Shown: positions 4,200 through 64,000 of the stretch, in pieces
How the letters are laid out: every line of letters starts with the position of its first letter
Position numbering within the stretch: position 1 is the first letter of the stretch
Assembly: GCA_001804285.1 (NCBI GenBank)
Contig: MHFR01000068.1
Location: 103,230-167,229 of the forward strand
Direction of reading: 5' to 3'
From: Candidatus Danuiimicrobium aquiferis
GTDB taxonomy: Bacteria; Omnitrophota; Omnitrophia; Omnitrophales; Danuiimicrobiaceae
Length of the DNA stretch: 64,000 nucleotides
Notes under the pieces: model-generated
What the model was told of the DNA's origin: nothing
What the model saw: only the letters and a program-made list of their open reading frames with translations
The model's database searches: none
Translations under genes and position numbers: made by a program

Positions 4200-4223
4200 A
4201 TCATATTTGACGAAGAGGGCACT

Positions 4224-27510: not shown

Positions 27511-27555
27511 CCCCTCACCCCGCCCTCTCCCTGAGGGAGAGGGCGGGGTGAGGGG
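27511..27555. terminator. Perfect 21-bp-stem, GC-rich palindrome after the asmA-like gene. No U-tract follows, so it may be a REP-like or factor-dependent terminator.
   Basis: The sequence reads cccctcaccccgccctctccc-tga-gggagagggcggggtgagggg. Confidence 0.55.
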
Positions 27556-30723: not shown

Positions 30724-30832
30724 TGTCATTCCCGCAAGCCGTAGGCGGGAATCTCATGCCTTTGGATTCCCGACTACCCCGGAAAAGCTGGGGCCGGCCC
30801 TTTCTTTCCCAAGGGAAGCATTCGGGAATGAC
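30724..30832. repeat. Structured palindromic element of the GTCATTCCCGC family, in the orn-helicase intergenic region.
   Basis: It has a local hairpin (attcccgc-aagccgtag-gcgggaat). It also has a long-range inverted repeat (gtcattcccg at 30724, cgggaatgac at 30823). Confidence 0.5.
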
Positions 30833-35857: not shown

Positions 35858-36163
35858 ATGAAACCTATTGATCTTAAAAATGATGTGAAATATTCCAAAA
35901 ATTCAATTGTCAGCAAAACATTGGTTGATAAAAAGGCGGGAACGCTCACATTATTTGCCTTTGATGTCGGGCAAGGGCTAAGTGAACATAAAGCTCCGTA
36001 CGATGCTATTGTCCAAGTTGTGGACGGAAAAGGTGAATTTTTTATCGCAAATAAGAAGACAGAGGTAACGGCCGGCGAGTTGATGATTATGCCAGCTAAT
36101 ATACCCCATTCCGTTCGAGCCAAAGAAAAGTTTAAGATGTTGCTGACAATGATTAGGTCTTAA
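35858..36163 (+). CDS. Cupin-domain protein.
   Basis: The 101 aa ORF carries a cupin_2-like G(X)5HXH...E motif region (GQGLSEHKAPYDAIVQVVDGKGEF). Confidence 0.7.
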   Translation: MKPIDLKNDVKYSKNSIVSKTLVDKKAGTLTLFAFDVGQGLSEHKAPYDAIVQVVDGKGEFFIANKKTEVTAGELMIMPANIPHSVRAKEKFKMLLTMIRS

Positions 36164-36243
36164 AGCCATAAGTTGTTTGCCTGATTATAATTAAGATAAA
36201 AAAGGAATTAGGCAAAAAAACACCTAAAATATAGCCCGTTCCA

Positions 36244-36272
36244 TTGCAAAATAACACCTTATCTGGTATACT
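36244..36272 (+). promoter_or_regulatory. Candidate sigma70 promoter of the giant gene.
   Basis: TTGCAA (36244-36249) is followed by a 17 nt spacer and TATACT (36267-36272). It lies about 147 nt upstream of the ATG at 36419. Confidence 0.4.
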
Positions 36273-36418
36273 TTCTTCACGCCTTTAAAAAGGCTCACGC
36301 CAAGGTTTAAAAAAGGGTTATCAAAATTATTAATTTCTCACAGGGGGAAATTTTTTTACTTTTTTATTGTTTATTGGGTGAAGAATTTAACGAAAGGACT
36401 ATTTTGTAAATATCCTTC

Positions 36419-42400: not shown

Positions 42401-45400
42401 ACCGCAGAAGATATGCAAGCCTTCGTCCATTTCTTTTTCGAACGATTTTATCGATTTCAGAAGTATAAGGGTATGGAAAATATTGTTGATCCGGAAAACG
42501 GCATCCTGCTGGTCAAGACTATAGACGAGTTGAAATTGCATAAACAGGATATTTTGACAGCGATACAAAATAAGAATCGCGCAGTATATGGCAATATGCT
42601 TTTTTGGGAAGGACTATTCCGAACATTTGCTGTAAACGGTCCTGGTTTTTATGATGCGTTTACACCTGACGAATGGAAAACCGTTCTCAATCATGTTTTT
42701 GATGTGTTGGAGGGGAAAGTGCATTATCGGCATTTTCGCCAGCGTTATTTTGAAGAGAGGAAAGCACTCAATGTTATTGATTATTTTCTGTGGGGTAATT
42801 TATCGAGCTTGCACCGATTGCATCTTTATTTTGAGGGTGTTGGGACGGTGAAAGGCGATTTTCAGAAAGTATCCATTCTCTATCTAATGATGGCTGATAG
42901 TCCGTGGGGGTATGTTTTCCCAAGTGCGGATCATTTTACCGTATTAGATCCCGATCGTTCGGGTCTATATCTATCATTTTTTGAAGATCCGTCGATTGCG
43001 GTGGGGATTCCGGAAAATCCTTGGGCAAAATCCAATTCTAAGGGGGGGCTTCCTACTGCAAAAGCACCGCGTGTTGCCGTAAACGTTTCACCGGAAATTC
43101 GGAGTTTAATGGTTGAAACGATTGAGCGCCTTGTCAAAACAAAAACAGGGGATCAAGATGTTCAGTCTTTTATTTATTCCAGAAACCTTTGGTTTAATGG
43201 ACACAATACTGCCGATTTTTTGAAATCAGATCTGTTAAAGCAGGCTGCTCCGGTGAGGCCGAAACCGCTCAGCACAAAACCTTACACAACAACCAAGCCG
43301 GCAGAACGATCCGGAAACGTTCAGAGCCAGGGGCGGGCTGAAGTGCGCAATGTCACGCCAAAAACGGGGACAGGTTCTGTATCAGTGAAACCAGAACCTG
43401 TCCCCGTTCTGGCGAGGGCTGAAACTCGCGACGAAGCGTTGGGAGGGCGAGTGAGCGTGAAGGAAGAAGATGTCTTTAAAGGATCGAAACTTCTTAAATG
43501 GCTTGGTGCCGCGTTTTGGGGGTTGGGTTGTGCGGCGTTTCTTTATGGCGCATACGGCGTTATTTCGCTTTCGGATCTTTTTGTTTCCTACTTGCCGGTG
43601 CTTCTTGAGGGCTGGCTTATTATTGGAACTGCCGTGCTTGTCAGCCATTACAAAAATCAGTTGCAATATTGGACGCGGCTTTCATTGATGACCGGTGCAA
43701 CCGTGTCCGTTTTCTTGCTCTTTCACAAACTCGCCGCTTACTACTGGCCGGTGTTTGGTTTGAATCCCGACATAAAGCTGTCAACAAGCATGATCGTCCG
43801 CTTGCCATCTATCTTTTGCGGAGTTTTTATCAACGAGTTGATTCGGGTAAAAAGATTTTTTAATTTCGAATTCAAATTAGGCTGGGAAGAAGCGAAGCCC
43901 CATTTTATCAAGGCATTTAAATGGGCGATTTCTTACGGAGCGATTACGGGATATTATTTTTATGTTGTTTTGTACGGCTTTATCGGACCGTATATTCCAC
44001 AGGCGAATTATTTTCCGATGATGACACCTGATATGGGGACGGCGATGATGAAAATGTTTTTTGACCTCGCGGTGACGACGCCCCTTGTCAATATTTGGAC
44101 CGTAAGTGCGGTTAGTGTGGCCTTCGGAGAAGAGGTGGATGTTGCCCAAAATTGGAGAAACCAGCTGGAGGGTTTTCTGTTATTTTATCCTTTAACATCT
44201 CTTTATTGGATGGTCGCGCTTTCTATATCATGGTTTCTCTTCCCGGATGGCCTGGATGGTTTTCAGGCCTCTCATGCGCTTTTTTCCACTCTTTGGCAGA
44301 TAGCATTGCCGGTATTTATTGTTAAGTTTTATATCGGAAACGGAAAACGCGGCAAGTTGACCGGTCAAAAGCCTGCTCCGGTTCCTCATCTCATATGGGA
44401 AAACCAATCGGTTTCCGCAATATCCCGCAGAGTGGACGTGCGTCCCAAGAACGCAAACACAGGAATTACGGTAAACCGCAGCCATCTTCGTGCTTTGGCA
44501 ATCAATATGGTATTTGCCGGAGGAGCTGTGGCGGATAAAGCGGCTCAATGGGCGCTGAGTAAAACATTGCCTGTAGCGGCGAAATTGCTTTGGCCCGGAA
44601 AACCGCGGCGATCAAAGACGTCAGACCGTTCCGAAGTTCGCAACAATGAAAATAATGCCAAAACGATTGTTGATCGAGGCGAACAAGAGTCCTCGATACG
44701 TAGAGGGCTTGTATCGAGGGCCGAAGCGCGGCAGGAGGAATATGAAGTCGCGAGTCAACCGGCGGCTCCACATATCAGGAATTTGAAGCAAGTAGTCACT
44801 GATGTTCAAACAGCGGTTTCCGAACTCAATATTCGCGGCCTGGAGGTTTTTGTTTTCGGTTCGCGGGCAAATGGGAAACCAAGGGATGGTAGCGACTTGG
44901 ATTTGATCGTTTTAGTTTCCGAGACCATGGATCAGGCTGCTGCCATGGCGATTATTTGGCAAAATGATGAAATTGAAAAACGACTTTCAGAAAAGCTTAA
45001 AACAAAAAGAGATTACCGTGTGCAATTTCACGATATTAATCCGGCAACCCGGCGGCACTATTTTTATTTGTGGAAGACTCGACAGTTTTTTAAAAAAAAT
45101 ACCTATCTTTGGTTTGTTCAGGCAAATTCAATTCAAGGGTTTGAATTGCATGCAGATGGAGTTGTTCCGGTGGATCTTGATCGACTGGAAAGTTTAACGC
45201 CGCTGCCGATCAATCTTGCGAACGATATAGCAGGCTTATCTCCTGAACAATCTCGGAGTGAAACGCGGCAAATGGGATTCGCAGAAGAGGACGAGGAAGA
45301 CTCTGACGATGACTTCATGCTCGATGGTGAAGACCTGGATATAATGCCTGGCGAATTTTCAGTGAAGCCCCAACCGCCTTCCGGGGCTGCCAATCAATTG

Positions 45401-60400: not shown

Positions 60401-63400
60401 TTTGAATTACTTGATCCTATTTTTGAATCGCGCGAACATATTCCGGATTCTGAAAAAGGAGTGCAGTTTTTTGCGGATCGAATTCCGGACTTAATTGATC
60501 ATACGTCATCAAATGGCAGTGAAATCCTTTTTGGCGATGCGTATTTTCTCAAGTTGTTCGGCGACTTCCTTAGAGAAACGGATTTTTGGTATTATCTGGG
60601 CGTTCTCAATCTGAAAGATAAACAATACGCGGCCTCCGTGAAAGCATTTGAAAAAGCGTTAGAACTTCACCCCGACGATCCGAGGATCCGGCAAGTGACG
60701 AAGACCTTCAAAAGGGCTGCTCCTGCATTCCACAACCTCGCGTTTATCGAACAAAGCCGGAAAGATTTCATCTTAGCGGCCGGTCATTATCGAACAGCCG
60801 TGGCTTTAGATCCTTCTTTGTTTCACGCATGGTTTAATCTGGGCAGAAGTTTGGGAAAATTAGAAAGGTTTCTCGATGCTGCGGAAGCGTTTCAGAATGG
60901 GTTGCGAGCTCTCAATGATCGCGAAAAAGAAGATCAAAAATTAGCAAGAGACTTTTGGGAACATCTTGCGGATGCCTATTCCCGGGCCGGAAAAGTGAAA
61001 GCAAAGGATTACATTTTAAATGAAGTACTCCGAAAGAGAACGCAACTTCCCACTAAACAAGAGTTGTCAGTCTTGTTTGAGAAATTAAATACTGTCGGCG
61101 AAAAACGTGCCGAAGTGCGTCACAATGAAAATAATGCCGAAGGGATCATTGACCAAAACGCACGAGTGTCCTCGATACGCTCCAAAGGGCCTGTATCGAG
61201 GGCCGAAGTGCGTTCGCACGCTCCTTATATTCCTATTTTTTCTACACGAACTGAAATTGCCCGTGCTCATGCTGTGATTAAACGGAGTACGGCCCGGAAT
61301 AAAAAAGTAAAAGAATCGAAAGCGATGATGGTATTGCTGCCGACAAAAGACGGGGGTGATAAGCTTCCTCTTTGGTTTGAAAGAACGATGGCGGATTTGA
61401 ATAAATTAAAAGGCTACCATATTGAATTGATGATTGCGTCGAACGGGTCCAGTCCCACGGATAACGCTCATGAAGTGATTAAAAATATAGCAGCGCAATA
61501 TATTCCCGAAGGAATTCCTGTTACATATATCCATATCGAACCGGACGTTGGCAAAAACGCCACTATTAATGTTCTGTATGAAGAAGCGTTAAAACGTTAT
61601 CAGGAAATTAAAGCGGAAAAACAAGCAGCAAAAAGTAAAAAGGGAACTTCTGATTTCAAAATGTTTCTTCATTTCCTTGATGACGATGTTTATTTTGGTC
61701 AAGACACCGAGTCGCAAATCGGAAAGAATATCAAACTTTTGGAGGATCCTGAATTCGCGCAGAAACGTACTGGTGTTGTTCCGAAGATTGTTAGTACAAC
61801 GCCTGTTTCACCGGTTATTCGCGGTGGGTGGAGTTTGTTGGACACTTGGAAATATTATTTTCAGCGCATGACGAATATCCGGAAGCAAGCTTTGGGCATT
61901 CCGCTTGTGCAAATTTACGGGCAATCATACACTATTGATATCGAAGATTTTCCCAAGAGCGGTATTCCTGACGTGCTGAGTTATGAAGACGCTTATTTAT
62001 CGGCGTTCTTTTATCCACATATGGTGACCAATCCTGATGCTACTCATGAACACGCTGAGCCTGCGACATGGGGCGTTTTTATGTCCCGTTATTTGAGGGA
62101 CGTCCGTCATCGTGCCGAATTAGGAAAGTTTTTTAGTTATGATCCGGCATTGAAAGAAAATTTTGACCGGTTTATCGAAGAGAGAAGAAAAAGCCATCGT
62201 GTACTGACCGAGGCATTAAAGCAGAAATTTCAGTTTTCTCCGATTGATCGAATGTTACTCAAGCTGAATTTGGGGTTGAAACATAGGCTTGACAAAATTT
62301 ATGCACAAGGGAAGGCGGAAAAATATTTGGAGCAAGAAGGGCCAATGATCAGAGGGACGAATGTGGGCAATGTGGACTTGATTAGCGTGAATCCAAAAAC
62401 CTATGGAATTGCCACGAAAGAAGGTGTGATTTATACGGAGCCCGAGCAGTTATGGAATACGGTTGTCGCGATGGGGCTTGATACGGATTTGAACAGACGT
62501 CTAAACATGGGCGAAGTTTTGAAAACGATTGCCGACAACCGAAATTTAAGCGAGGAAGATAAAGTTCATTTGAAGCAAACATTGGAAGAAATTTGGCAAA
62601 GCTTTGGAAGAACACCCGCGGAGGAATTGACAATTGAGGAATTTGCCGTATTTCTTAATGATCAGCGAAACCTTGGTCCGGGAGCACGGTTTCTTACCGA
62701 ATATTTAATTAATCAAAAATTATTTTTGCTTTATCATGCCAGCCATCAACGTGATGATTGGTTGCTTGCCTATTCTGCCATGATTAAATTGATCGGTTTT
62801 ATCCGTGAAGAGGCAACGATTGAAGATTTGCGTGAATTGCTTCGGATTGCAAGAAAATCAAATATTCCGATCGCATATAGATTATTGGCAGAAGTGATGG
62901 ATCGGGTCATGCAATTGGAGGAACCTATCGAAATAGCGGGACAATCTTATCGAGTCATGGAAAAAATAGAAGGCGGATTTGTGCTGGCCGATGGTGATCC
63001 TCAAAAGTTTGAGCCGACTAGGTATTATGTGGCGAGTCATATTGTTCCTGCTGAACATGCCCGGTTACAGCGGATGAGCGAATTGGAGCCCGTTCATTTT
63101 GTAAAACCCATTGTTTATGATGAAGTACTCCGAATTCAGGTGGCAGACAGAGTGAACGGTCAGGGGTTTAATGATTATGTGAATCGCTGGCACCGCGTAT
63201 GCAGCTGGCTGGAAATTGCTATTCAGATCACCAAATCGGCAATCGCTATGCATCAGCAAGGATATGTTCATGGTGATCTCGCGCGGCCGTATGGTGTTGT
63301 TACTTTGGATCCGGAGCAATCGGATCAAGTGGTGTTGACAAATACCGGTCTGGCCGAATGGGCCGGGCATTTATCCGAGCGGGCGGATGTTTATGGAATT

Positions 63401-64000
63401 GGAAGCCTGCTTTACTATGGATTTACTTACCGGTATCCGATCCTTGGAGGAGTATATCAATCAATTACGTTAGTCCCTCCGATCGTCAACGAAATTCTCA
63501 GAAAGGCGCTTGAACAGAAATCGAACGATCCCGCCGGCAAGTATGAATCTATGACAGCGTTGCTTTCAGATCTCGAAGCTGCGCAAAAAGAAATCACAGA
63601 ATGGCGAAAACAAGAGCCGGTATATACCCAGAAGCTTGTAAATCAATTTAAGAGAAATCTGGATATTTCTTTTGATGTCCGGTTTGATCGTAAAATATAT
63701 GAAATTAGTTTTTTACGTGAAAATGAAAGATTTTCTGACAGGGACCTTGATTATTTGTTGTCGATTCAAAATGATGCGTTTTGGGCTGAAAGCCGGTTTG
63801 CGGTCAGAATGCTTGTTCAATATGTTAAAGATTTCCCTTCGGAAATAGGCCGTATCATGGAAAGAGCGGTGTCGCAGCGGATACCTCTTCATGCTGAAAT
63901 TGTCAGGGATATTTTACTCAGTGCTTTTAAATCAAAAATAGAAATTACTATTAATGGGCATCGATACAGGTTAACTGAAAAAGAAACAAGATGGGCTTAT
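36419..64000 (+). CDS. Giant multidomain membrane protein of at least 9,194 codons. It is partial: the frame is still open at the window end.
   Basis: The ATG at 36419 directly follows an in-frame TAA at 36407-36409. No stop occurs in this frame up to 64000. The ORF track lists no M-to-stop ORF in this frame in the interval, and every + strand ORF listed here lies in another frame. Hand translation gives a signal-like N-terminus (MAGSTKQFILRIIAGVTLLAFSV). Recognisable domains at 41138, 44831, 50720, 58958 and 63221 all read in the same frame. Confidence 0.85.
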   Translation, partial: MAGSTKQFILRIIAGVTLLAFSVNQIGYSNPSPTNFSAQPVTEVPLPNPGFQFSIPPELGTVQNLTSGSGGTIVHIQTAHGNYEAEKQIQAILQHLHDHYGFNLLLLEGAGVKLKPELLQFFPQNKIKTFELADKLTHKSLMKGAELFLMRAKRAKAFGIEDLKIYRRNRRAFSRVMMRKKEADGFLEQIDRGIKHFSALYLNKELRTFLNESEDYEMGKTPLLAWIRSLQKNAEIFLDLDLSDPKNQFHWPMTLRLLKLQELESKIDTEKLAEEKRNFLKKIKPLFVSFPQKRESRMMDPHFRGDDKQSRIASPMSGTTARNDGRQNRGQAVHLPVPYSGLYTQIESLLTSPANIQNELPDPETGLLFERMASKLPRNFNYRMYPNLNYFIGRLILQSEIKGELLLAETNHLEELIVNRLAQKEDEKQLMELLRDFHLLKRLFALALTPEDYEQMTSDIVRHPEPPKGEGYEEKRFFALRAQNDRFRPRNMLQSFNALNKDNHVQNLQVAGIKDIDLLYESALEFYRIAKNRDWEMLENIQKRMNRLGERKAIVITGGFHATPFKNFFSEHGYSYAQVRPKISSTDGFQSYIDAMLQKSTLESPYVFSIPPAEWIRHGINPSWVRQQFSAAMRGMAERNRSETRNKTGLQKGDRQLLNRSHMPVPFLTDQSAQESSIRSKEHVSRAEARGREVTSRQSLVNSVPVSSDLVFQVRAEDSRQGHAGMTVELHRNDGASRAEVRQTKQAEIDTPAFYAELPKAQLRKVAFAIQFLFEDSFAWLPHEKTDISIPNIESELKRLPNYKLRNEEELERMLPKLRLTNRAALVQFLAVLVALFDKKDEEREAAEKAVTETAEVKSIDASTDVSPEAKKSKLFHFALRFMGLEELVRFRTMRRTSGASKEEERAEDKKTDASVEAGEGKEPDQPVDRRPTNEKDAAFYTRDLYLTGGLSHQNALSKILAYLKAGIGDVESDLLRQPVSDVLKTYEDDFHQRVLSREKMPYFQEVVPGFEWRTTVRDFLTLHWNRIHWPVVLYRFIGSDPGRFLFSAPVWFMIGSFIGGLTVAAAFAVIVRYVLRPLYEGVLFNLEAKAMKRYRAMAYEPFPYGPHFIFQGDDLWRNVRQTYFQSESLMLPNEKSNSVLKLYALEHVLKKYPGTRKYRSIVRRVRERLSSSSEWPDIHDAWTMVHNAAVRQRIQMSDPGVKLILYVLELPVRAPPATEAQSPQGRRNFYQRLVLLIRRLILIAIQNAILQPFRILRSSVYSLNLRATARLIEKIENRIKAFFKYPIREYSSEMFSSRSNTQVKSVMGLPDEEKRKQELIQYLKQFNISELDPLIAEIDQRLHLKFDRFFDKEWFSQAFWNTLTGNRVVSNKKRKNKSEEAIAEKLRVLNAQYEFDLANHTVLLNTEMPLFLNAFILVKLASQLYQHHVVRGERENIHLPPEELESIPKKMLMKLFWDAFRNGKKYFSDTKQPYMGNLAIFILMMVKAWGCKVYSSNDKPGILYIKTHRITMRAMIKAKEGFVIGSHYLLGKRYLGITNQKNYPLAEKKHGVSKKLSAVYSILKPFFPILSQFAWMLGYLTAVVALFSGFFLHLDLSFVMHYLDQLIQWLSTIDFFDIGPMIAAIWHSIQSAYHDLAAAFSQILHYLFDIDLTWLKQFFHDLWQSLEPVRAFVEDYLVPFFYQFLVPALIFGWGMISGFLAYKVQLRQRLIQVGDYFISFGAPKLIAWFITVPAVIAATTLNLNTDKIFEFRERIESALQTKYIVKPLSLIWHMLANLLYAGSFLFGVGLYFFMMWLIIDPQLGLSGLAGGLQSLGLPVPPIVLIAYVAGVVSLPFSFVYVVSDLLMKKLPERGLFSGRRTVWGMIAFLGVFAVITPVALNYTFRSNWMRSDYVAKEKARTLYAKPSMVYHYSLMGKEEAKLKIEEMKKEQTQKIEEVKKEQTQKIEAFKAQIEQAASQPAYPSTISRFKKKIEEFFKQDDKKKKVNAVESNKTAEDMQAFVHFFFERFYRFQKYKGMENIVDPENGILLVKTIDELKLHKQDILTAIQNKNRAVYGNMLFWEGLFRTFAVNGPGFYDAFTPDEWKTVLNHVFDVLEGKVHYRHFRQRYFEERKALNVIDYFLWGNLSSLHRLHLYFEGVGTVKGDFQKVSILYLMMADSPWGYVFPSADHFTVLDPDRSGLYLSFFEDPSIAVGIPENPWAKSNSKGGLPTAKAPRVAVNVSPEIRSLMVETIERLVKTKTGDQDVQSFIYSRNLWFNGHNTADFLKSDLLKQAAPVRPKPLSTKPYTTTKPAERSGNVQSQGRAEVRNVTPKTGTGSVSVKPEPVPVLARAETRDEALGGRVSVKEEDVFKGSKLLKWLGAAFWGLGCAAFLYGAYGVISLSDLFVSYLPVLLEGWLIIGTAVLVSHYKNQLQYWTRLSLMTGATVSVFLLFHKLAAYYWPVFGLNPDIKLSTSMIVRLPSIFCGVFINELIRVKRFFNFEFKLGWEEAKPHFIKAFKWAISYGAITGYYFYVVLYGFIGPYIPQANYFPMMTPDMGTAMMKMFFDLAVTTPLVNIWTVSAVSVAFGEEVDVAQNWRNQLEGFLLFYPLTSLYWMVALSISWFLFPDGLDGFQASHALFSTLWQIALPVFIVKFYIGNGKRGKLTGQKPAPVPHLIWENQSVSAISRRVDVRPKNANTGITVNRSHLRALAINMVFAGGAVADKAAQWALSKTLPVAAKLLWPGKPRRSKTSDRSEVRNNENNAKTIVDRGEQESSIRRGLVSRAEARQEEYEVASQPAAPHIRNLKQVVTDVQTAVSELNIRGLEVFVFGSRANGKPRDGSDLDLIVLVSETMDQAAAMAIIWQNDEIEKRLSEKLKTKRDYRVQFHDINPATRRHYFYLWKTRQFFKKNTYLWFVQANSIQGFELHADGVVPVDLDRLESLTPLPINLANDIAGLSPEQSRSETRQMGFAEEDEEDSDDDFMLDGEDLDIMPGEFSVKPQPPSGAANQLSGGKEEKNKGKRFPAARPDDYPSPVRSIISSGLKIDEDTSLPSARRSEVRLKKDSTEAMLHQGARVSSIHPKGPVSRSEARNILQKGDRHMTPIEQLPVPFLTDQSERESSQLRRGPKDAAARAEVRSDFNNATDEQIMTALKQIGLSERQTRNLSTYLSKIKRVLASGRRFRSHEELRVFMAGVLGVPELAAKFADHFFEKSASQPAAKPNKAPSKSFQFNRTVEQVIGKMPFSVNVLSGPNRKKLYDGKYVPNVVQVASLGVRERIAARHIVYSKFLDVLEEYTHLTEAELLHMGFVYRQGPSSLYLSEVVRPILQSTGASHEAQSALAPAILEIAKSMREAKALSGDEVLKAIFSNLGGIDGQFSQLIAYLNHIQFNKGKNPRLKVPDEKVQEIKSIGEVEEITIWFVKAGFLTSVAMAEVKFKSSTNRAPIRFAINVANDRTISAEKVRNAYRHMRADYDLDSRFVAEPIGLGTEIAPVIISEWVEQSDELHLYADTGFQQFQVWSGQNMHNNQKVSLQDSRKIWRQIIQIQTMYSGVRPDGAGMSRPWINRGDFVLTRDSQGEPRVVLIWDDRSNLVTGQKIPWDAIDSVVNSLIWGEVDPDSGKYIWADDPELAIRAIEDGYLEHRQDKMEAKAELIEILKMVYRNRLPEIIRQPSVISAGFDDFDPAELDHFISVAKHAHKVLGEFLQQRSEVREESFAVDGEKDLTIEEIDAQMKTDGFPEMEWLWKTFKGMKIWKGVKLRRINLADIDPGKIQEMRTRHMGGLLARPLVMALMSVSIMCIALSVFMLSVSALQDVMLSLQGYPVGDWHSFWKNNVEPIFRMFRNPLIWMALLFSTPVVFLPATAIKRAFLLSWKKISALDLAFMLSKRNYREWFEQTPGAQQTVAKLRGMGINENFDNPDYARRYRATTKGVVEVPIPAVPNVHAVLKEVLGEVRDGKYERGNYTTSLKHGRKSVTAFVAQNKREVELSKPPRPRYAWPIPTFIGLLMGFYSIVYFPRTPMWGLYLVVMSIIAPGIYFVSTALNIAPGILYYKRTRTYLSQIIAGNRPKSGIEINMEQLGINVLEYEKEKVYENREAGTRIVIRNKKTLEGAVKFLTSSEDIGNCIALHNFVSWVLPTLLDDDGIQLADIYFKGTHDVYTHRAQMWMVAAQENGVPVLTVNSFEFNNDGSTHINRLMPEAIKALQDVAVRTGFKKHIYVGISEFGREYLDSHFPQGKTQNDIEKIHHPDAGYRYYFDSYALRGFPWGHRRYVFLKERSLTKRIYAVIFGIIEVFKGNFSKAKAFISSAKNVHNFWEIPVENAGQAIKETEEARSEVRTQRLLDDIGQNSGDIVQRLHDSQIRYLEKQGVEKNFLERVSRLPVDELFSEAINYLLAREIKKTGVRLLPQAEEIVDFILRQNLPVLMMTGTPHDYVNLRIAHHPLAKRIAESAGIWGAHEDEIRMGYPGNKLGGIRALSRDPKYGAGRILSIGDGEAEKQAASKTGNPFVLIDPLVQENMTAVLPEKPMIVHDLARWREWLPNLLEKQNIKIVVFDWDGTLSDSQSAVEEVQTRLLYGIWKGFNDEALEEPEIIAELYETSFGREALRMMQSIRGLSAQRSFSEYFMPLLIKPARAEVRENENELPEVPEPPLELELTGSASVSDETVILPPDVTSSQGEQPEDVKSAEDQVRFEDEVIEPDGQIDTEKLNIHTAIYEPTGSGLLDEVDEQRESVAPGNNDTVVLASPVLDLSGDLPATSLNIENFIKADLKLGMLSDNLKQYEIRHHQSDWLIEHEIRVAVLVFQLGKQLKWDPDELRELVFAARFHDIGKTDSSINPLIVNKPEALTPSERDLMRRHPLYGARILEEAGVDSKQILDAMYMHHEALDGTGYPSQLKGDLIDRGGRILKIADSFDAMAFARPYSQPKSLETILKELESDRGSHFDPDLVREFVKLETFPAGGRAEVRDMTPKTGTGNRFLFIGLSDQKGDRHMTPVEQLPVPFLTAKELVSRSEARQDHVADEIRAEFQTIVAVAKGKPKRIKGLSSIVDFESGRLRANFPRPIGDTVGKTKTIGPVKNLADLELEIFNLATGEFRMDFYYKKTGEKKFEKDPLRMYWVPEKKAFLVEREYQLERVNAAFRRLRETKQKGTEEIRETIGDISAFMNLQVGGTPEAFQTPDGESVEKPFFTGAGVDLDRMSLVIVKESQDRYRLEFGYVYTVEDEESHEKIKKEGIAVVLWERNKKADDYKGYIRRKDKQIEELRNAFKELLNPALPVGSARDIEDVRELFHLPTGLMQIAFPTPDGGNIGGGKSEEEGRRGIGASADLEFISARVVKTADEQLRVDFYYKTRKDKIIREEPASIAWDGLSYIFPSDDMGLTDKEFRMRVLKGRILEELLYRFFAKKQSDTMSSSGLTGGSMDSRLRGNDRGSRIEFEREFLVDEFTKEYRYPTFFVEGEFVGACKWGRSAHSIVETVLKLSRLQKLSGRTEPIRLIVFDAAKVDEAMEALRATQINGIPYEIIPASELLKRTGPPNGDAVSMLETLKDVRQKELAGDETGLEKMYASLREESGAPVRRYKKGLQLQHEADWQSHLINHYIEEGPEKILSVLDSIQEHQSPYWEWAYHLRLIAFLSYLYQKVEDGRVRKRILEIYPDIEKDPGAWQKIVQYYKLREYGPDAEARIHALIRTQELDESEDIEEAEEVPAPAAERKSRMTHAAAFDFGRFEVTVDRTISRQMKRHHITDLDKAVPAVDMAVTPDVKAATLLETIAEFRKLFARVTDPYDPFQRMSLFLSQKKEDLKDIPAAERHALLRQVVQAFVMYFIDVKRFNDSRYKFFTGYKGGLGNVGFGDFLRSLDATGNLILVEDDFGPGVSGSRLLNEFETFAKTLGIPVPRLSFDPHAAAASGNVPIPAAVFFADEIIRRADRGKLVRTPEDRRVILDFIGAIKSDQQRVVKLAAAAKGGVNTNQVGFNEAVVKDLHDQVKRTGPQSFPEKLEERIVKFAQGIIQIFSHEGLAQPSMYNAANNALDLRVKNIARMKELLHAIPQDEIDEKELEILLQVYIASVSTIFGVAFGKAWDREDFDQLKVLLDGKGIISRKVLDQLGAEGNVRPVKEAIPIAALNERSFEFSLSYFFPELSPERVLHLAVLGYELFDRIARENVIANRTYDAWLLLNMVSSRSFDSNKNVRNHRGLINNRFHTAPMVKALDDLHAWLKKQNIDTSTVTYPFSGTDLTTALLLTDASTIRMYDALPFGMDMNPRDYEAYKISYVAHKAASGIILDNVASAIGHAKTPLLWELEAIGAKDIKIELDDEDVNMYRIHFKWAYDKDSPLKERVIEYREWIFEEQEDFDGAVDPKRDTVYLHKGTMASGIYSSKLPNVIISFGGETVKGYQKIPVKRIIQIPDPKKLAPAHTFRYPQISEAAVLIKSKVPLELALRPEEEEGIQPLTAEEKDAIQKSISISNGVAEVLREDKGSILLTGETDSAHLFGKRLQYRQIPDDLKVSAVPAELYKGKNVLVVPGYGNLPFTLKELGARSVVAIDKDPGVIAWQRAKQIYAGDPSVQAMNRDEAKDPNESLERLHELVMTDAEPIEPVDGIRFAAADLTERLPIEDDSMDLIVVPYLFGFERGITTVDGFERGLAEILRVAKPDATIIILPSGLSDEAQYVKGSKLPEFCRWLRAQQGLVIQESAPIPLYNYLDDPARQTTPPLGHYAAISNQGPSIFYGDTYGKLTPSAGSFFRSLNQEIGGYHSKFPQYYRDHIANSHGQILKGAEGLSGMAVVLGLGNGIDIPLKLLAKQFDRVIVIDLDAETVKQTVAKLDENLRRKIEIRVDDLSGILPEFSHEVDKIVAEAPSPESARERILSLAKSIEIRKNALAGVKASYVTSSVVLSQLIFTAHQYAVDQMRKRFSVDESFLTSFLDYRKAFLYDLMVKVASHYLSSIHGTVQPSGRVYFADGLHETPVEENAIGVRRGLAQPEPKIPVTVFELIEQWFTRDIAQHTYWVWDNKPPKVTQDHKGSVLQEVSDILLPKPAGRTQTTLIYSPPGGVDRSSDPAWQSLKKKADLYIHLWDEPLVKKFQRLKPERLAPTGRNYSHHDYSPNVFGAEEERIHKEAIRYTEKGVTFSEDFQGSAFVLMEPGENDVIATAIEQPGFDDPEIAFIGEKNGKLVVGGTQYFNPLYYRYDDFLKFLLTMIQDQGIQLKGLMIGHEDSPKQDNAARHFVEEVTRMGIPTVSFPPRKEPGTILVTKEGIARLHFKKREHAQTVRGPKADQSDARLELEVDRSATDLRLWKDLFPEEKTSDTQPVKRDVSGDDLVRKRYLELLDDMEKRLAEPVESEKTLQARLVRDENELSLRVTYQREDRVSHVVVRFDRQKEKAEVRGFAELVGEEDVTAAGVRGRIGVPLGEVDILAARYRFEGEVSLSESESNFRKGLMDILRAARVKVLAHLYPELSRPQDRTVKDSSEQPRYPVPGKEEIIEFYEKHGDDGFIYLPNGAKVPVGIYQLDDKTLTWYRGLINEFGRNLKILSLGSGRGKLESLLKEDGHQVTAVDLSPKNARYAEKVGVETVLADAHHLSLPEKDYDLVIVVDSLGQMDPPVIFQRAKEHLKAGGWLFVTMVRTEAKQTREGYEVTKYILYPRGYLNHELTKAGFAPTSEGMLPTFGDPRGITFEYHNAVYQPARSEARALKPFSNLFWWRSESNKRLREVKHQWSRLERLLIKKGAKLQVQLASFWHEEGEHTDLPDMDVLAVKSLYSGTAFASFELPQGAITHFLKDEETSLVARGNPFWAKFMRVANETVSEKMFGVDDFREAWRTLRRLRLEYRRKEKKEPVPFKVNLADPVISYRSLGVESDGSIRRDDLFDYLKLSDKQREELARYKIVEISSEQNPSGRGKLILYYPVSAETKKLIERIKSRYKEDLRQLGFAGGEAADEFILEQFLTPVLIALRDVVQVRKLADVIARYLNEQGSSKMPKEMKVVHVGGLYHYRSLQKILEATGLFEDGLVFELLDPIFESREHIPDSEKGVQFFADRIPDLIDHTSSNGSEILFGDAYFLKLFGDFLRETDFWYYLGVLNLKDKQYAASVKAFEKALELHPDDPRIRQVTKTFKRAAPAFHNLAFIEQSRKDFILAAGHYRTAVALDPSLFHAWFNLGRSLGKLERFLDAAEAFQNGLRALNDREKEDQKLARDFWEHLADAYSRAGKVKAKDYILNEVLRKRTQLPTKQELSVLFEKLNTVGEKRAEVRHNENNAEGIIDQNARVSSIRSKGPVSRAEVRSHAPYIPIFSTRTEIARAHAVIKRSTARNKKVKESKAMMVLLPTKDGGDKLPLWFERTMADLNKLKGYHIELMIASNGSSPTDNAHEVIKNIAAQYIPEGIPVTYIHIEPDVGKNATINVLYEEALKRYQEIKAEKQAAKSKKGTSDFKMFLHFLDDDVYFGQDTESQIGKNIKLLEDPEFAQKRTGVVPKIVSTTPVSPVIRGGWSLLDTWKYYFQRMTNIRKQALGIPLVQIYGQSYTIDIEDFPKSGIPDVLSYEDAYLSAFFYPHMVTNPDATHEHAEPATWGVFMSRYLRDVRHRAELGKFFSYDPALKENFDRFIEERRKSHRVLTEALKQKFQFSPIDRMLLKLNLGLKHRLDKIYAQGKAEKYLEQEGPMIRGTNVGNVDLISVNPKTYGIATKEGVIYTEPEQLWNTVVAMGLDTDLNRRLNMGEVLKTIADNRNLSEEDKVHLKQTLEEIWQSFGRTPAEELTIEEFAVFLNDQRNLGPGARFLTEYLINQKLFLLYHASHQRDDWLLAYSAMIKLIGFIREEATIEDLRELLRIARKSNIPIAYRLLAEVMDRVMQLEEPIEIAGQSYRVMEKIEGGFVLADGDPQKFEPTRYYVASHIVPAEHARLQRMSELEPVHFVKPIVYDEVLRIQVADRVNGQGFNDYVNRWHRVCSWLEIAIQITKSAIAMHQQGYVHGDLARPYGVVTLDPEQSDQVVLTNTGLAEWAGHLSERADVYGIGSLLYYGFTYRYPILGGVYQSITLVPPIVNEILRKALEQKSNDPAGKYESMTALLSDLEAAQKEITEWRKQEPVYTQKLVNQFKRNLDISFDVRFDRKIYEISFLRENERFSDRDLDYLLSIQNDAFWAESRFAVRMLVQYVKDFPSEIGRIMERAVSQRIPLHAEIVRDILLSAFKSKIEITINGHRYRLTEKETRWAY
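37281..37340. repeat. Class A palindromic element (GTCATTCCCGC-aaaa-GCGGGAATCC plus ATCCCCAC/GTGGGGAT hairpin), in frame within the giant ORF.
   Basis: The core is near-identical to the intergenic copy at 8396-8459, with compensatory changes in the second stem. Confidence 0.7.
37401..37435. repeat. Class B hairpin (ataGGGGACAGGCAg-ttcat-cTGCCTGTCCCCtat), in frame within the giant ORF.
   Basis: A perfect 15-nt inverted repeat was read directly. Confidence 0.7.
38371..38420. repeat. Class B hairpin (AAAAGGGGACAGGCA-20 nt-TGCCTGTCCCCTTTT). The loop is in inverted orientation relative to the copies at 45654 and 51324.
   Basis: The loop caattgctcaacaggagtcatatg is the reverse complement of the loop in the other two copies. 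Confidence 0.7.
38444..38477. repeat. Class C hairpin (TCCTCGATAC-14 nt-GTATCGAGG) followed by GCCGAAGCGCG (RAEAR).
   Basis: Read directly from the sequence. Confidence 0.7.
38571..38599. repeat. Class A hairpin (ATTCCCGC-caggggcat-GCGGGAATGACA), in frame.
   Basis: Read directly from the sequence. Confidence 0.65.
42187..42252 (+). repeat. 33-nt direct tandem repeat, two full copies plus a partial third. It encodes KIEE[MV]KKEQTQ heptad-like repeats.
   Basis: The units are aaaattgaagaaatgaaaaaggaacaaactcaa and aaaattgaagaagtgaaaaaggaacaaactcaa. Confidence 0.8.
43363..43408. repeat. Class B-variant hairpin (AACGGGGACAGGTTCTG-12 nt-CAGAACCTGTCCCCGTT), preceded by RAEVRNVTPKTGTG.
   Basis: A 17-nt perfect inverted repeat. 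Confidence 0.65.
44689..44718. repeat. Class C hairpin (GTCCTCGATAC-gtagagggctt-GTATCGAGGGCCGAAGCGCG).
   Basis: Read directly. It is part of a ~115-nt module that begins with TCCGAAGTTCGCAACAATGAAAATAATGCC at 44626. Confidence 0.7.
44790..45120 (+). other. Nucleotidyltransferase (pol-beta superfamily, MNT-like) domain inside the giant protein.
   Basis: The motif LEVFVFGSRANGKPRDGSDLDLIVLV matches the hG[GS]x9-13DhD signature. Confidence 0.6.
45598..45630. repeat. Class C hairpin (GTCCTCGATAC-atcccaaggggcct-GTATCGAG).
   Basis: Read directly from the sequence. Confidence 0.7.
45654..45705. repeat. Class B hairpin (AAAAAGGGGACAGGCA-tatgactcctattgaacaattg-CCTGTCCCCTTTTT).
   Basis: Read directly from the sequence. 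Confidence 0.7.
45727..45770. repeat. Class C variant hairpin in which both stem halves are changed (TCCTCGCAG ... CTGCGAGG).
   Basis: Compensatory substitution of the stem relative to TCCTCGATAC/GTATCGAGG. The position relative to the class B element is the same as at 38444. Confidence 0.6.
50023..50060 (+). other. HAD motif I (VVFDWDGTLSD) inside the giant protein. A GDG motif-IV-like segment (SIGDGEAE) lies about 200 nt upstream.
   Basis: Read from the translation. Confidence 0.45.
50714..51240 (+). other. HD-GYP domain (candidate c-di-GMP phosphodiesterase module) inside the giant protein.
   Basis: It shows H...FHDIGK...RRHPLYG...MYMHHEALDGTGYP...KIADSFDAMAFARPY. Confidence 0.75.
51324..51375. 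repeat. Class B hairpin (AAAAAGGGGACAGGCA-tatgactcctgttgagcaattg-CCTGTCCCCTTTTT).
   Basis: Read directly. It is preceded by RAEVRDMTPKTGTG (51250-51290), as the 43363 copy is. Confidence 0.7.
52629..52652. repeat. Class A hairpin (ATTCCCGC-ttgc-GCGGGAATGACA), in frame; it encodes DSRLRGNDR.
   Basis: Read directly from the sequence. Confidence 0.65.
58958..59255 (+). other. Class I SAM-dependent methyltransferase-like domain inside the giant protein.
   Basis: Motif I (KILSLGSGRGKL), motif II (VTAVDLSP), motif III (YDLVIVVDSL) and GGWLFVT are present. Two further Rossmann MTase-like segments lie at ~55900-56400 and ~56700-56900. Confidence 0.65.
60570..60960 (+). other. TPR-repeat region inside the giant protein.
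   Basis: It contains AFEKALELHPDDP, HYRTAVALDPSLFHAWFNLGRSLGKLERFLDAAEAFQNGL. Confidence 0.55.
61168..61202. repeat. Class C hairpin (GTCCTCGATAC-gctccaaagggcct-GTATCGAGGGCCGAAGTGCG).
   Basis: Read directly. It is part of a ~115-nt module starting at 61106 (GCCGAAGTGCGTCACAATGAAAATAATGCC) that parallels the one at 44626. Confidence 0.7.
61325..61710 (+). other. GT-A fold (family-2-like) glycosyltransferase domain inside the giant protein.
   Basis: It shows MMVLLPTKDGGDKL...LMIASNGS...FLDDDVYF with a DxD-type motif. Confidence 0.5.
63020..63590 (+). other. Protein-kinase-like catalytic-fold domain (possibly degenerate) at the C-terminal end of the visible part of the giant protein.
   Basis: HQQGYVHGDLARPYGVV is HRD-like, ADVYGIGSLLYYGF resembles the kinase DVYS(L/F)G region and KYESMTALLSDLEAA resembles the kinase C-lobe. 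Confidence 0.45.

Follow-up and report, generated by a model that had tools for sequence, protein, structure and literature searches.

A giant Omnitrophota gene with enzyme modules delimited by a strict pentapeptide, a candidate processing site

Introduction

Giant open reading frames (ORFs), 10,000 to 147,000 codons long, characterise the Omnitrophota. Whether the product of such a giant works as one chain or is cut into pieces is an openly stated question: for the 'Archaeovorin' type, defined by glycosyltransferases and methyltransferases, the cleavage points are unknown, which blocked the authors' analysis (West-Roberts et al. 2023, bioRxiv 10.1101/2023.11.21.568195). Multi-enzyme giants have since been described as a class of Omnitrophota long proteins, with a Module 1 core of PF08241 methyltransferase, HAD hydrolases and HD-domain regulators (Nielsen & Lui 2026, bioRxiv 10.64898/2026.06.07.730766). 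The locus analysed here raises the same question. It lies in a stretch of 64,000 nucleotides (the window), in which an initial annotation had pointed to a giant polypeptide with an unusual enzymatic toolkit, read as a surface or envelope-spanning machine, a delivered effector or a polyprotein. The locus is no new kind of gene; it carries a motif that bears on the question of one chain or many.

Extent of the giant open reading frame

A scan of the window found frame +2 without a stop codon from 36410 to 64000, with the first ATG, at 36419, right after an in-frame TAA; the remaining five frames each have 263-617 stops over the same stretch. The ORF therefore starts 8.4 kb upstream of 44790, where the polypeptide had been taken to begin, and it runs past the window end rather than stopping at 63590, although its reading as a single multifunctional ORF stands. 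In record MHFE01000007.1 the gene, of ~47 kb, is called at 15,706 aa with a start that maps to 36419, which places it among the Omnitrophota giants of at least 10,000 aa. The part in the window (36419..64000, on the + strand like every feature below) comprises the first 9,193 codons, the N-terminal 58% of the gene, and the other 6,513 aa (42%) lie beyond. About 85% of the window part belongs to no recognisable family.

A conserved head before variable cargo

A query consisting of the first 5,000 aa matches 86 proteins of 2,756-7,830 aa, essentially within aa 1-640 only, and alignment coverage drops steeply past aa ~600-650. The named relatives are Candidatus Omnitrophota/Omnitrophica, plus one named Verrucomicrobiae. 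The matching segment is a conserved head module (36419..38338) with a signal-peptide-like segment at aa 8-26 and the motifs QTAHG, LEGA and ITGGFH; in the head alignment (A6), H80, E108, R533 and H561 are invariant. Behind the head, the Pfam content of the 86 relatives is highly varied. The family plan is a conserved signal-peptide head of ~640 aa followed by variable cargo, which points to the head as the mechanism-defining part.

The head might be a hydrolase with kinship to the erythromycin-esterase/ChaN (Tiki) families. The likeness to erythromycin esterase, ChaN and DUF5694 consists of the His motifs QTAHG and GGFH, a conserved Glu and a conserved Arg. Among head members, the weak Pfam matches to DUF5694 (three members), Erythro_esteras (one) and Cofac_haem_bdg (one) all lie under the curated cut-offs, and the head profile gave no match to solved structures. 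TraB/PrgY and GumN are further members of the Tiki superfamily, to which the Pfam description assigns Cofac_haem_bdg.

Membrane segments and predicted topology

Topology was judged by a crude procedure, a hand-made Kyte-Doolittle hydropathy plot with a positive-inside count, which gives a signal peptide (the segment at aa 8-26) and about 19 helices (1+6+8+4) within the first 4,025 aa. The membrane region (39578..44335) has a helix at aa 1054-1072 and clusters at aa 1570-1881 (about 6) and aa 2364-2639 (about 8). The last membrane block (47732..48484) has four hydrophobic helices, at aa 3772, 3830, 3981 and 4004, and the soluble part that follows it (aa ~3971-4302) shares 63% identity with a module of relative P0004. 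Hydropathy places no helices between the HAD and HD-GYP modules, nor between the methyltransferase, TPR, GT-A and kinase-like modules. The membrane blocks once proposed to separate the domains thus reduce to the one at nt 47732-48484 and an isolated hydrophobic candidate at nt 54542-54598 (aa 6042-6060, H = 1.84). That segment, if a real helix, would flip everything downstream.

The helix-parity and positive-inside count puts the nucleotidyltransferase and the stretch of aa 4,023-9,193 on the cytoplasmic side. With at most one doubtful hydrophobic segment between them, the modules from HAD to kinase-like are probably cytoplasmic rather than surface-exposed, and the envelope-spanning machine of the initial annotation is not favoured. 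The enzymes would also need cytoplasmic cofactors, namely SAM, NTP, UDP-sugar and cyclic dinucleotide; to our knowledge, none of these is available outside the cell.

Enzyme modules

The first enzyme module is a Polβ-type nucleotidyltransferase (NTase; 44810..44983) with the signature GSRANG...DLDL, which matches Pfam NTP_transf_2 (E 9e-7, 29.6 bits vs a cut-off of 21) and an NCBIfam MntA-like family (E 2e-5). A HAD-superfamily module follows at 49367..50266, bracketed by RSEVR (49364) and RAEVR (50264), and scores 37.7 bits with Pfam Hydrolase (cut-off 26.4). The module is permuted, in that its upstream half aligns with profile positions 40-136 and its downstream half with positions 1-65; motifs II-IV precede motif I, and motif I itself (VVFDWDGT, of the DxDxT type) falls in the downstream half, at nt ~50009-50200. 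Three HAD-like repeats of relative P0002 match this module. The HD-GYP domain (50726..51208) has the HD motif and the HHExxDGxGYP signature (HDIGK ... HHEALDGTGYP) together with matches to Pfam HD_5 (E 4e-30) and HD (E 9e-14) and to an NCBIfam c-di-GMP phosphodiesterase family (E 4e-24). Beyond it lie three internal repeats of ~115 aa each (51410..52465), similar to three repeats in P0001.

Class I SAM-methyltransferase (MTase) domains are found at two places. The first (56027..56344) matches Methyltransf_11 (E 2.5e-6, 28.5 bits vs 21.2) and shares 37% identity with a module of P0003, a protein for which the precomputed Pfam list names methyltransferase families. The other (58964..59230) matches Methyltransf_11 at E 7e-21 (75 bits) and Methyltransf_25 at E 1e-18, and RSEAR at 59426 closes its module. 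Between them, a Rossmann-like segment (56726..56932; VLGLGNG ... VIDLD) reaches only E 0.011 with Methyltransf_25, below the cut-off. Its motif is kept in two relatives, its AF2 model has a pLDDT of 41, and a profile search against solved structures gave weak KsgA and MTase matches (E 0.04-0.7).

TPR repeats (60551..60880; Pfam TPR_1 E 2e-11, TPR_2 E 2.5e-9) precede a module at 61202..62338 for which a GT-A, GT2-like glycosyltransferase fold is supported by structural modelling. The direct Pfam match is below the cut-off (E 0.004). A Foldseek comparison of the AF2 model (pLDDT 76, pTM 0.77) with solved structures puts only GT2/GT-A glycosyltransferases in the top 50 (best E 3.8e-9), the top matches of a profile search against solved structures are GT2, and in the alignment of the module (A2) the DDD (DxD) motif has D160 and D162 invariant and D161 nearly so.

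The last domain within the window is protein-kinase-like (62969..63601; alignment A1). It has no direct Pfam match and an NCBIfam Bud32 match at E 0.003; its family profile matches bacterial Ser/Thr kinase structures at E 1.6e-22, and relative P0006 carries Pkinase (E 2e-15). In the copy studied here the alignment shows no Lys at the expected β3 position, a catalytic loop (HGDLARPYG) without Asn, and NTG at the DFG position. Without the β3 Lys, loop Asn and DFG Asp, the domain lacks residues of an active eukaryotic-like protein kinase and is probably a pseudokinase. A second kinase-like unit seems to begin at the window end.

The gene combines many families: NTP_transf_2, Hydrolase, HD_5, two copies of Methyltransf_11, TPR, a GT2 fold and a kinase-like fold. 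Of the domains first read by eye from the translation, all of these survive profile and fold comparison, the HAD in permuted order and the kinase as a fold without catalytic residues, and only the middle 'MTase-like' segment (56700-56900) is not confirmed; HD-GYP and SAM-MTase, the assignments whose failure would have refuted the initial reading, have the profile support given above. The toolkit is not unusual for its class, because multi-enzyme Omnitrophota giants had already been described: PF08241, HAD and HD are the Module 1 core (Nielsen & Lui 2026). Profile searches of the 9,193 aa found no glycoside hydrolase, peptidase, adhesin, dockerin or lectin domain, and no SecA_DEAD, HEAT or NUDIX domain.

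A strict pentapeptide delimits the modules

A pentapeptide, R-[SA]-E-Φ-R, in which Φ is V, A, L, M, I or T, marks the modules off from one another. It occurs 19 times in the 9,193 aa of the gene; a count over the six frames of the whole window gives 22, so that only three sites fall elsewhere. The 445,732 aa of the 86 relatives contain 876 sites, where composition predicts 10.3 (85-fold). Control motifs in the same proteins (permuted order, K for R, D for E) give 5-35 sites, so that both Arg and the Glu are required, and the six-frame background is 43 sites in 638 kb of other loci.

In the median, the first site of the 86 relatives stands at aa 626, where conservation of the head stops, and successive sites are 221 aa apart. 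In this gene, the NTase, HAD, HD-GYP, MTase and GT-A modules lie between such sites; an MTase of P0088 likewise has one site 54 aa ahead of it and another 51 aa behind. Copies also occur in tandem, 20-45 aa apart, and the flanks are disordered, low-information linkers rich in Ser/Ala/Pro and in Glu. A recurrent, specific site at module boundaries, one mark of a polyprotein, is therefore present in the gene and throughout most of its family: the motif is absent from 15 of the 86 relatives and also from the large relatives P0004, P0008 and P0009, and in the gene itself the 2,366 aa from aa 4999 to 7364, which include several modules, have no site.

From these features of sequence, the pentapeptide is a candidate processing site of the giant proteins. 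We know of no protease specific for it, and profile searches found no protease domain in the 9,193-aa window part.

Linkers colonised by in-frame palindromes

The first linker cluster (38339..38644) directly follows the head and contains RSETR, RAEAR and RAEVR with in-frame palindromes: a hairpin at 38369-38422, a two-stem hairpin at 38437-38490 and a GGGAATGAC element near 38571-38598. Inside the membrane region, a hairpin stands between RAEVR and RAETR (43334-43429). Just upstream of the NTase, RSEVR and RAEAR enclose a 25-aa hairpin-encoded peptide (NNENNAKTIVDRGEQESSIRRGLVS; 44627..44731; repeat family D1). Downstream of it (45254..45781), RSETR and an acidic stretch (45269-45340; 13 of 24 residues D/E) lead into a second cluster of RSEVR, RSEAR, a hairpin (45653-45706) and RAEVR. 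The linker between HAD and HD-GYP (50270..50640) is acidic, proline-rich and of low complexity, with 32 D/E vs 5 K/R in 124 aa; both acidic stretches had been noticed in the initial annotation and are borne out by these counts. After HD-GYP (51251..51412) come RAEVR, a degenerate half-hairpin, a hairpin (51323-51376) and RSEAR; this hairpin is the exact reverse complement of the copy at 38369-38422 (54 nt, 100% complementary; repeat I1). Ahead of the GT-A module, two RAEVR copies enclose another hairpin-encoded peptide (HNENNAEGIIDQNARVSSIRSKGPVS; 61106..61213).

The same kind of repeat is found between genes. A palindromic insertion in the head (37281..37439, aa ~289-341) includes a perfect 19-bp stem at 37397-37439 and a GTCATTCCCGC...GGGAATCCA element whose family also has intergenic copies at 8396-8459 and 30725-30832; the copies within the ORF are at 37282, 38588 and 52641. 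The homologous heads in L086 and L005 lack this insertion. A GGATTCCCGC...GCGGGAATGAC palindrome (52626..52652; repeat I3) is read in frame as MDSRLRGND, and this peptide is inserted elsewhere, at another position, in the L086 homologue. In the head alignment, too, in-frame palindromes are insertions specific to one or another homologue. One repeat family is thus intergenic and, in frame, intragenic, present or absent between homologues, and several linkers are colonised by in-frame palindromic repeats as found between genes of the same genome. With such insertion polymorphisms, the hairpins appear to have colonised permissive linkers secondarily.

A 17-bp GGGGACAGGCA hairpin, with an A-tract, a stem and a T-tract, is shaped like a bidirectional terminator and is found at more than 95 loci of many phyla, mostly at gene ends.

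Proposed mechanism and alternatives

With moderate confidence we read the locus as the N-terminal 58% of a genuine 15,706-aa gene of an Omnitrophota family of giant, membrane-anchored multi-enzyme proteins, a polyprotein-like carrier recognised at the pentapeptide. The head would lie outside the inner membrane and the enzyme chain in the cytoplasm. The cargo begins with the roughly 19 hydrophobic helices and continues as more than 5,000 aa nearly free of membrane segments, bearing protein-sized modules (NTase, HAD, HD-GYP, SAM-MTases, TPR, GT2 and probable pseudokinase). From one message, the membrane would then be supplied with envelope-modifying and nucleotide-signalling enzymes in a fixed set, and the pentapeptide would be where processing, or at the least recognition, of the individual modules takes place. 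The polyprotein, once just one of several options, gains from the family-wide enrichment of a strict motif at module boundaries, while cleavage itself is what we infer. More speculatively, and with a good deal of doubt, the pentapeptide may be the missing processing site of true bacterial polyproteins, in which the head leads a train of enzymes that is cut or handed over per module and the linkers are hot spots of palindrome insertion and module exchange.

The strongest competitor, itself somewhat doubtful, is a giant scaffold that stays uncleaved: a single membrane-anchored chain that fixes stoichiometry and proximity, with the motif serving some other purpose, for example to dock a partner or a repeat domain, to contact a chaperone or translocon, or to pause translation. 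The ORF stays open for at least 27.6 kb through all linkers and repeat insertions, as selection on a single chain would ensure, but a polyprotein also requires an open frame, so that the intact frame favours neither reading. Peptides of the 39,678-aa ORF of V. archaeovorus have been detected, and the lack of an identified protease and the 15 relatives without the motif also speak for the scaffold. Against it stand the strictness of the motif, its disordered flanks, domain-sized spacing and tandem copies, which are typical of enzyme recognition sites with excisable spacers.

A display of the modules on the outside, or their delivery to prey whose envelope they would modify or degrade, is unlikely; this is the surface-machine reading of the initial annotation and the attachment and cell-wall-degradation reading of related proteins (West-Roberts et al. 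2023). The signal peptide and many hydrophobic helices, the GT2 module and TPR repeats, and an upstream neighbourhood formed by a surface-polysaccharide gene cluster with a LysM-amidase would suit such a role. Predictors likewise place most detected domains of such proteins outside, although the study that reports these predictions doubts them (West-Roberts et al. 2023). The location count and the cofactors discussed above point to the cytoplasm instead, the degradative and adhesive domains sought in the 9,193 aa are missing, and type II secretion genes were not found within the window. We also found no evidence of an effector delivered to a host cell.

Less likely still is a signal in nucleic acid, whereby hairpins and motif act on the 47-kb transcript or its DNA (RNase processing, stabilisation, intragenic termination on uncoupling of translation, or module-shuffling recombination) and the peptide would be no more than their translation. 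About half of the motif copies in the window do make up the 3' arm of a hairpin with two stems, in which 9 of 23 pairs show compensatory changes, the linker RNA folds far better than its shuffles (-110 kcal/mol for 45524-45790, z = -5.9), and the terminator shape and gene-end position of the GGGGACAGGCA hairpin fit such a signal. However, the motif codons vary synonymously in three genes, through all the synonymous families (R as CGN/AGR, S as TCN/AGT, E as GAA/GAG), and selection therefore acts on the peptide. Many sites, such as those at 47489, 49364 and 59426, have no hairpin nearby, none of 101 GGGGACAGGCA hairpins in other genomes adjoins the motif, and the hairpins have no Rfam match.

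That the contig is misassembled or chimeric, joined at repeated palindromes, or that adjacent genes were wrongly fused, can be set aside as highly improbable: the contig stems from a metagenome assembly (judging by its accession series), near-identical repeats of 54-63 nt have three copies within the gene and the independent contigs located span only the first ~300-350 aa, but random joins cannot yield an open frame of 9,193 codons beside frames so dense in stops, the frame persists across every repeat, and head, motif-punctuated cargo and in-frame palindromes recur in the 86 proteins from many assemblies and in L086.

A strict, simple motif that splits giants into protein-sized units can be searched for in every giant ORF. 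If it is a cut site, structure and function of the giants could be predicted module by module. Through the insertion of in-frame palindromes into linkers, such genes may gain length and be reshuffled.

Comparison with known systems

The gene belongs to the described giant multi-enzyme membrane proteins of Omnitrophota (West-Roberts et al. 2023; Nielsen & Lui 2026). With the multi-enzyme class and its Module 1 it shares a length above 10 kaa, many Pfam families with none dominant, all three of PF08241, HAD hydrolase and HD domain, a signal peptide with TM helices, and a sequence nearly unique outside short regions. It differs in standing at the short end of the size range and in having 85% without a family match. 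Nielsen & Lui (2026) do not mention cleavage, linkers, palindromes or polyproteins, and the sections consulted do not describe a shared N-terminal head; the head, the pentapeptide and the in-frame palindromic linkers are new in that they were not found in West-Roberts et al. (2023) or in Nielsen & Lui (2026).

The Archaeovorin type resembles the gene in its Omnitrophota origin, numerous TM regions, its complement of glycosyltransferases, methyltransferases and TPR repeats, an N-terminus that bears no annotated domains, and the question whether the product is cleaved. In contrast, the type was set at more than 30,000 aa and genes of more than 90 kb, and the present gene, at ~47 kb, falls short of that size; SecA_DEAD, HEAT, glycoside hydrolase, peptidase and NUDIX domains of Archaeovorin are all missing from the 9,193 aa, the 58% of the gene in the window.

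Like viral and eukaryotic polyproteins or multi-copy precursors, the gene encodes protein-sized units in one ORF, set apart by a short and strict motif that is at times repeated in tandem around short spacers that could be excised; the likeness is a functional analogy only. Such polyproteins and precursors have repeated short processing sites, an example being the yeast alpha-factor precursor with its KR-EAEA spacers. We know of no precedent for a bacterial polyprotein at such a scale.

The repeats, finally, recall the Rickettsia palindromic elements, which are reportedly in-frame selfish repeats in protein-coding genes. Both are short palindromes found between genes and within ORFs, where they keep the frame, add peptide segments and are present or absent between homologues. 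Lineage and sequence are unrelated, however, and the repeats here are shorter (about 40-110 nt) and concentrated in the inter-module linkers of one giant gene; one of them, the GGGGACAGGCA hairpin, is common to many phyla.

Extent and surroundings of the giant gene

In frame +2, no stop codon occurs between 36410 and the last base of the window. The first start codon is the ATG at 36419, which lies immediately after an in-frame TAA, and the N-terminus of the resulting giant ORF is a signal-peptide-like segment, MAGSTKQFILRIIAGVTLLAFSVNQ. Since the remaining five frames carry 263-617 stops apiece over the same 27.6 kb, the open frame is not due to chance. A gene call of 15,706 aa in MHFE01000007.1 (GCA_001805325.1) has a start corresponding to position 36419, so that the enzyme array at 44790-63590 is an internal part of a longer gene, which starts 8.4 kb before the array and ends ∼19.5 kb past the window. 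The analysis of domains, motifs and topology covers the N-terminal 9,193 of the 15,706 aa (36419..64000, + strand), the C-terminal 42% lying beyond the window. About 15% of these 9,193 aa can be assigned to a known family, and eight further ORF segments (including aa 746-2300, 4023-4315 and 5420-6440) gave nothing above the Pfam threshold. In the protein database the longest match was 7,830 aa, and a self-match to the 15,706-aa protein was not found.

The genes upstream are ordinary and share the (+) orientation of the giant gene. They comprise a gene cluster for surface polysaccharide (Wzy_C, four GT1, two GT2, an ABC exporter, a carbamoyltransferase and GT4), a set made up of LysM-amidase, FeoB, amine oxidase, DUF3047 and AsmA, and genes for a helicase, RNase T, Dus and a small cupin. 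The 64-kb window has no genes for type II secretion.

A conserved head with variable cargo

Searching with the first 5,000 aa as query returned 86 proteins of 2,756-7,830 aa, the named members of which are almost all Candidatus Omnitrophota. When mapped back, their overlap with the giant gene is essentially limited to aa 1-640 (36419..38338), here called the head. Behind it, the Pfam content of the relatives varies widely, taking in sugar-phosphate enzymes, dehydrogenases, kinases, HEAT repeats, methyltransferases, radical SAM proteins and others. The head itself has the invariant residues H80, E108, R533 and H561 and the motifs QTAHG, LEGA and GGFH. A significant match between the head profile and solved structures was not found. 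Single members give sub-threshold matches to DUF5694, erythromycin esterase and the ChaN family (Pfam label ‘Tiki superfamily’), a lead that the head may be a hydrolase of this Tiki-labelled superfamily.

Nearly all apparently complete relatives (the 86 together with P0003, P0004 and P0009) terminate in ...[SA]-A-COOH, in variants such as KSA, SAA, IAA, VSA, RAA, TAA, ASA and others, often preceded by a hydrophobic or Ala-rich stretch. Such a terminus has the appearance of a conserved C-terminal signal and resembles the ssrA tag, which ends in Ala-Ala.

A pentapeptide at the module boundaries

Module ends in the translated giant ORF repeatedly carry R-[AS]-E-[VAT]-R. The general pentapeptide is R-[SA]-E-Φ-R. 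Of the 22 occurrences of its strict form, R-[SA]-E-[VATILM]-R, across the six frames of the window, 19 are in the giant ORF, and the six-frame scan found none in the other genes of the window. In the giant gene the sites mark the end of the head and lie on either side of the NTase, HAD, HD-GYP, third MTase and GT-A modules. In one head relative (P0088), an MTase is likewise flanked by sites 54 aa ahead and 51 aa behind. Two more large genes with DNA, L005/P0003 and L006/P0001, carry an equally frame-specific motif, the codons of which vary freely (Arg CGN/AGR, Ser TCN/AGT, Glu GAA/GAG), which places selection at the level of the peptide. The DNA pattern CGNNCCGAAGYNCG as a general explanation of the pentapeptide is rejected, because other genes use all synonymous codons.

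Across the 86 head relatives there are 876 motif sites in 445,732 aa, compared with 10.3 expected by composition. Controls in the same proteins (permuted order, Lys for Arg, Asp for Glu) give 5-35 sites, and in 638 kb of unrelated loci, translated in six frames, the background is 43. The motif is present in 71 of the 86 and some relatives lack it, such as the other 15. The first site falls at a median of aa 626 (IQR 571-675), the exact end of head conservation, and the median spacing is 221 aa. Upstream flanks are Ser/Ala/Pro-rich and downstream flanks Glu-rich, with otherwise little information.

Such properties are those of short linear recognition motifs within disordered linkers. Read most economically, the pentapeptide is a candidate processing site, which would make the giant genes polyproteins, a possibility that the initial annotation had also raised. 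Domain searches over the 9,193 aa within the window identified no protease. The terms ‘linker’, ‘palindrom’ and ‘polyprotein’ are absent from the text of West-Roberts et al. 2023 (bioRxiv 10.1101/2023.11.21.568195) and from that of Nielsen & Lui 2026 (bioRxiv 10.64898/2026.06.07.730766). A full-text literature search with the motif strings yielded nothing relevant, only unrelated alginate-lyase papers.

Enzyme modules

Pfam searches were run on both ORF halves and afterwards on separate segments. They detect, all on the + strand, an NTase at 44810-44983 (NTP_transf_2, 29.6 bits vs a cut-off of 21), an HAD module at 49367-50266 (Hydrolase, 37.7 bits vs 26.4), an HD-GYP module at 50726-51208 (HD_5, E 4e-30, with HHEALDGTGYP present in the translation), methyltransferases at 56027-56344 (Methyltransf_11, 28.5 bits vs 21.2) and 58964-59230 (Methyltransf_11, E 7e-21), and TPR repeats at 60551-60880. 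NCBIfam is concordant, with a c-di-GMP phosphodiesterase family, an MntA-like adenylyltransferase, several methyltransferases and a weak Bud32 kinase match. One open frame encoding multiple enzyme domains with profile support bears out the proposal of a multifunctional giant protein, and the NTase, HD-GYP and TPR assignments stand, as does the profile support for HAD. Of the three Rossmann/MTase-like segments proposed, the first and third hold as Methyltransf_11; the middle one (56700-56900) gives weak matches, with Methyltransf_25 at E 0.011. Two relatives of this middle segment were found, both of which keep GLGNG...D.D; an AF2 model from two input sequences was unusable (pLDDT 41), and the three-sequence profile gave methyltransferase matches to solved structures, all weak.

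The order within the HAD module is swapped, profile positions 40-136 lying upstream of 1-65, the latter bearing motif I, FDWDGT. The cap and motifs II-IV thus stand at the front of 49367-50266 and motif I at its end. This suggests a circular permutation, or a unit taken out of register from an array of tandem HAD domains such as the three repeats of P0002, a related protein.

For the GT-A/kinase region, aa 8262-9193, only 14 relatives were found by HMMER among 1.84 billion representatives, some of them separate proteins 900-1,200 aa long. In one relative, P0016, GT2 is matched above the cut-off; in another, P0006, Pkinase is matched at E 2e-15. Direct phmmer searches of the GT-A/kinase and MTase regions against solved structures gave only matches with E > 0.1. 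An AF2 model of the GT-A module built from a ten-sequence alignment (pLDDT 76, pTM 0.77) has GT2/GT-A glycosyltransferases as all of its best 50 Foldseek matches among solved structures (top E 3.8e-9), and its DDD motif is invariant or almost so in the alignment. The GT-A assignment is thus supported, as is the kinase-like fold, a seven-sequence profile matching bacterial Ser/Thr kinases at E 1.6e-22. In the alignment, the copy in the window has HGDLARPYG as its catalytic loop, NTG at the DFG site and no Lys at the expected β3 position; with these catalytic features missing, the module is best called a putative pseudokinase. P0006 has two kinase-like units in tandem, and the final ∼100 aa encoded in the window (63700-64000) align with the helical region ahead of its kinase-like domain; a second unit probably lies beyond the window end.

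The 4,993 aa behind aa 4200 match only four proteins at E <= 1e-10, each of which has one module in common with the giant gene. The soluble segment aa 4023-4315 (48485-49363), behind the last membrane block, shares 63% identity over 336 aa with P0004, a protein of 3,119 aa with zero R-[SA]-E-Φ-R sites, and is by far the best-conserved cargo module. Three tandem ∼115-aa repeats at 51410-52465, with a mutual identity of 23-25%, are similar to a three-fold repeat in P0001, an SNF2-helicase-containing protein of 3,079 aa.

Membrane segments and sidedness

Hydropathy scans detect the N-terminal segment, one helix (aa 1054) and three helix clusters (aa 1570-1881, 2364-2639 and 3772-4022). Past aa 4022 there is a single isolated hydrophobic candidate. 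The acidic linkers between the modules are as first described; the membrane-spanning blocks said to separate the domains are found around 47732-48484 and not elsewhere in the array. Behind the first transmembrane cluster, at aa ∼1918-1958 (42170-42290), lies a short coiled-coil-like direct repeat, KIEEMKKEQTQKIEEVKKEQTQKIEAFKAQIEQ.

Sidedness was estimated crudely from helix parity (1+6+8+4) and the positive-inside rule. On this basis the first ∼1,000 aa would lie outside the inner membrane, and the NTase and the whole chain after aa 4022 would lie inside, a cytoplasmic placement that agrees with the cofactor needs of the enzymes. Helix parity, the positive-inside count and the cofactor needs do not favour a surface machine, as had been suggested, for these modules. 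The isolated candidate, aa 6042-6060 (54542-54598), is ILLQVYIASVSTIFGVAFG, uncharged (H = 1.84) and surrounded by an enzyme chain that is soluble elsewhere. Were it a membrane-spanning segment, HAD and HD-GYP would be on one side and the MTase, GT and kinase modules on the other.

In-frame palindromes

Several linkers of the giant gene consist of perfect or near-perfect inverted repeats that are read in frame. The palindrome CAAAAAGGGGACAGGCA-N20-TGCCTGTCCCCTTTTTG occurs at 38369-38422, 45653-45706 and 51323-51376 (+ strand), the copies at 38369 and 51323 being exact reverse complements of each other. Also in frame on the + strand are a related stem of 17 bp (43363) and a stem of 19 bp (37397). 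Elements of the GTCATTCCCGC...GCGGGAATCCA type lie at 37282, 38588 and 52641 in the ORF and at 8396-8459 and 30725-30832 between genes. The genome is generally rich in palindromic elements: the spacer of the first two genes (962-1152) contains five successive perfect stems of 10-12 bp, and a 21-bp perfect stem, CCCCTCACCCCGCCCTCTCCC with its complement, follows the AsmA-like gene at 27511-27555.

The GGGGACAGGCA hairpin is found at more than 95 loci of species-representative genomes, mostly at gene ends among the matches listed. The scan used the exact pattern AAAAGGGGACAGGCA-N(3-30)-TGCCTGTCCCCTTTT, with a 15-nt stem, represented in the window by the copies at 38369-38422, 45653-45706 and 51323-51376, and gave at least 95 loci (L007-L101), with multiple copies in some genomes. 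The listed genomes belong to widely separated phyla and comprise Omnitrophota, Collinsella tanakaei, Desulfoscipio geothermicus, a Clostridium, Deltaproteobacteria, Acidobacteriota, Nitrospiraceae, Gemmatales and others. A link between this hairpin and the pentapeptide is rejected: the 101 hairpins listed from other genomes all lack a motif site within ∼150 nt, and hairpin and motif are therefore independent features.

The hairpins may have a role at the RNA level. A two-stem hairpin, the 3' arm of which encodes ...AE[VA]R, is present in five copies, with pairing maintained by compensatory changes in 9 of 23 pairs; the linker at 45524-45790 has an RNA folding z of -5.9 vs shuffles; and the GGGGACAGGCA hairpin, with A-tract, stem and T-tract, has the form of a bidirectional terminator. 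Rfam gave zero matches at gathering thresholds over the whole window, and in a consensus promoter/terminator scan of 36000-55999, the list of which does not include long-loop hairpins, counts were not above shuffles. The hairpins are treated here as probable secondary colonists of permissive linkers. When the head is aligned with two homologues, the palindrome peptides are insertions, present in one protein and missing in others, at differing places. Rickettsia palindromic elements, in-frame insertions present or absent between homologues, are known to behave likewise. In a homologue from another assembly (L086, 219-8000), the head contains three EKG(T/I)G...LPVPFS hairpin peptides and an MDSRFRGND element and is closed by R-S-E-A-R at aa 688; its open frame exceeds 2,594 codons and reaches the end of the locus.

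Relation to known giant proteins

Giant ORFs are an established trait of Omnitrophota (Seymour et al. 2023). The ‘Archaeovorins’ combine GTs, MTases, TPR and numerous transmembrane regions, and the cleavage points of such proteins were stated to be unknown (West-Roberts et al. 2023). A family-wide punctuation motif and a head-plus-cargo layout are what give the present gene its interest, both making the cleavage question directly testable. The catalogue of Nielsen & Lui 2026 comprises 916 proteins of at least 10 kaa, ∼39% of them ‘signal peptide plus TM’. One class described there is the ‘multi-enzyme metabolic cluster’, and one co-occurrence module has PF08241 methyltransferases, HAD hydrolases and HD domains at its centre. 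The giant gene matches this description of the class, with an MTase of PF08241, HAD, HD, a signal peptide and helices. The toolkit, initially called unusual, is therefore typical of its class as described there, and the gene belongs to an already known kind of Omnitrophota giant protein.
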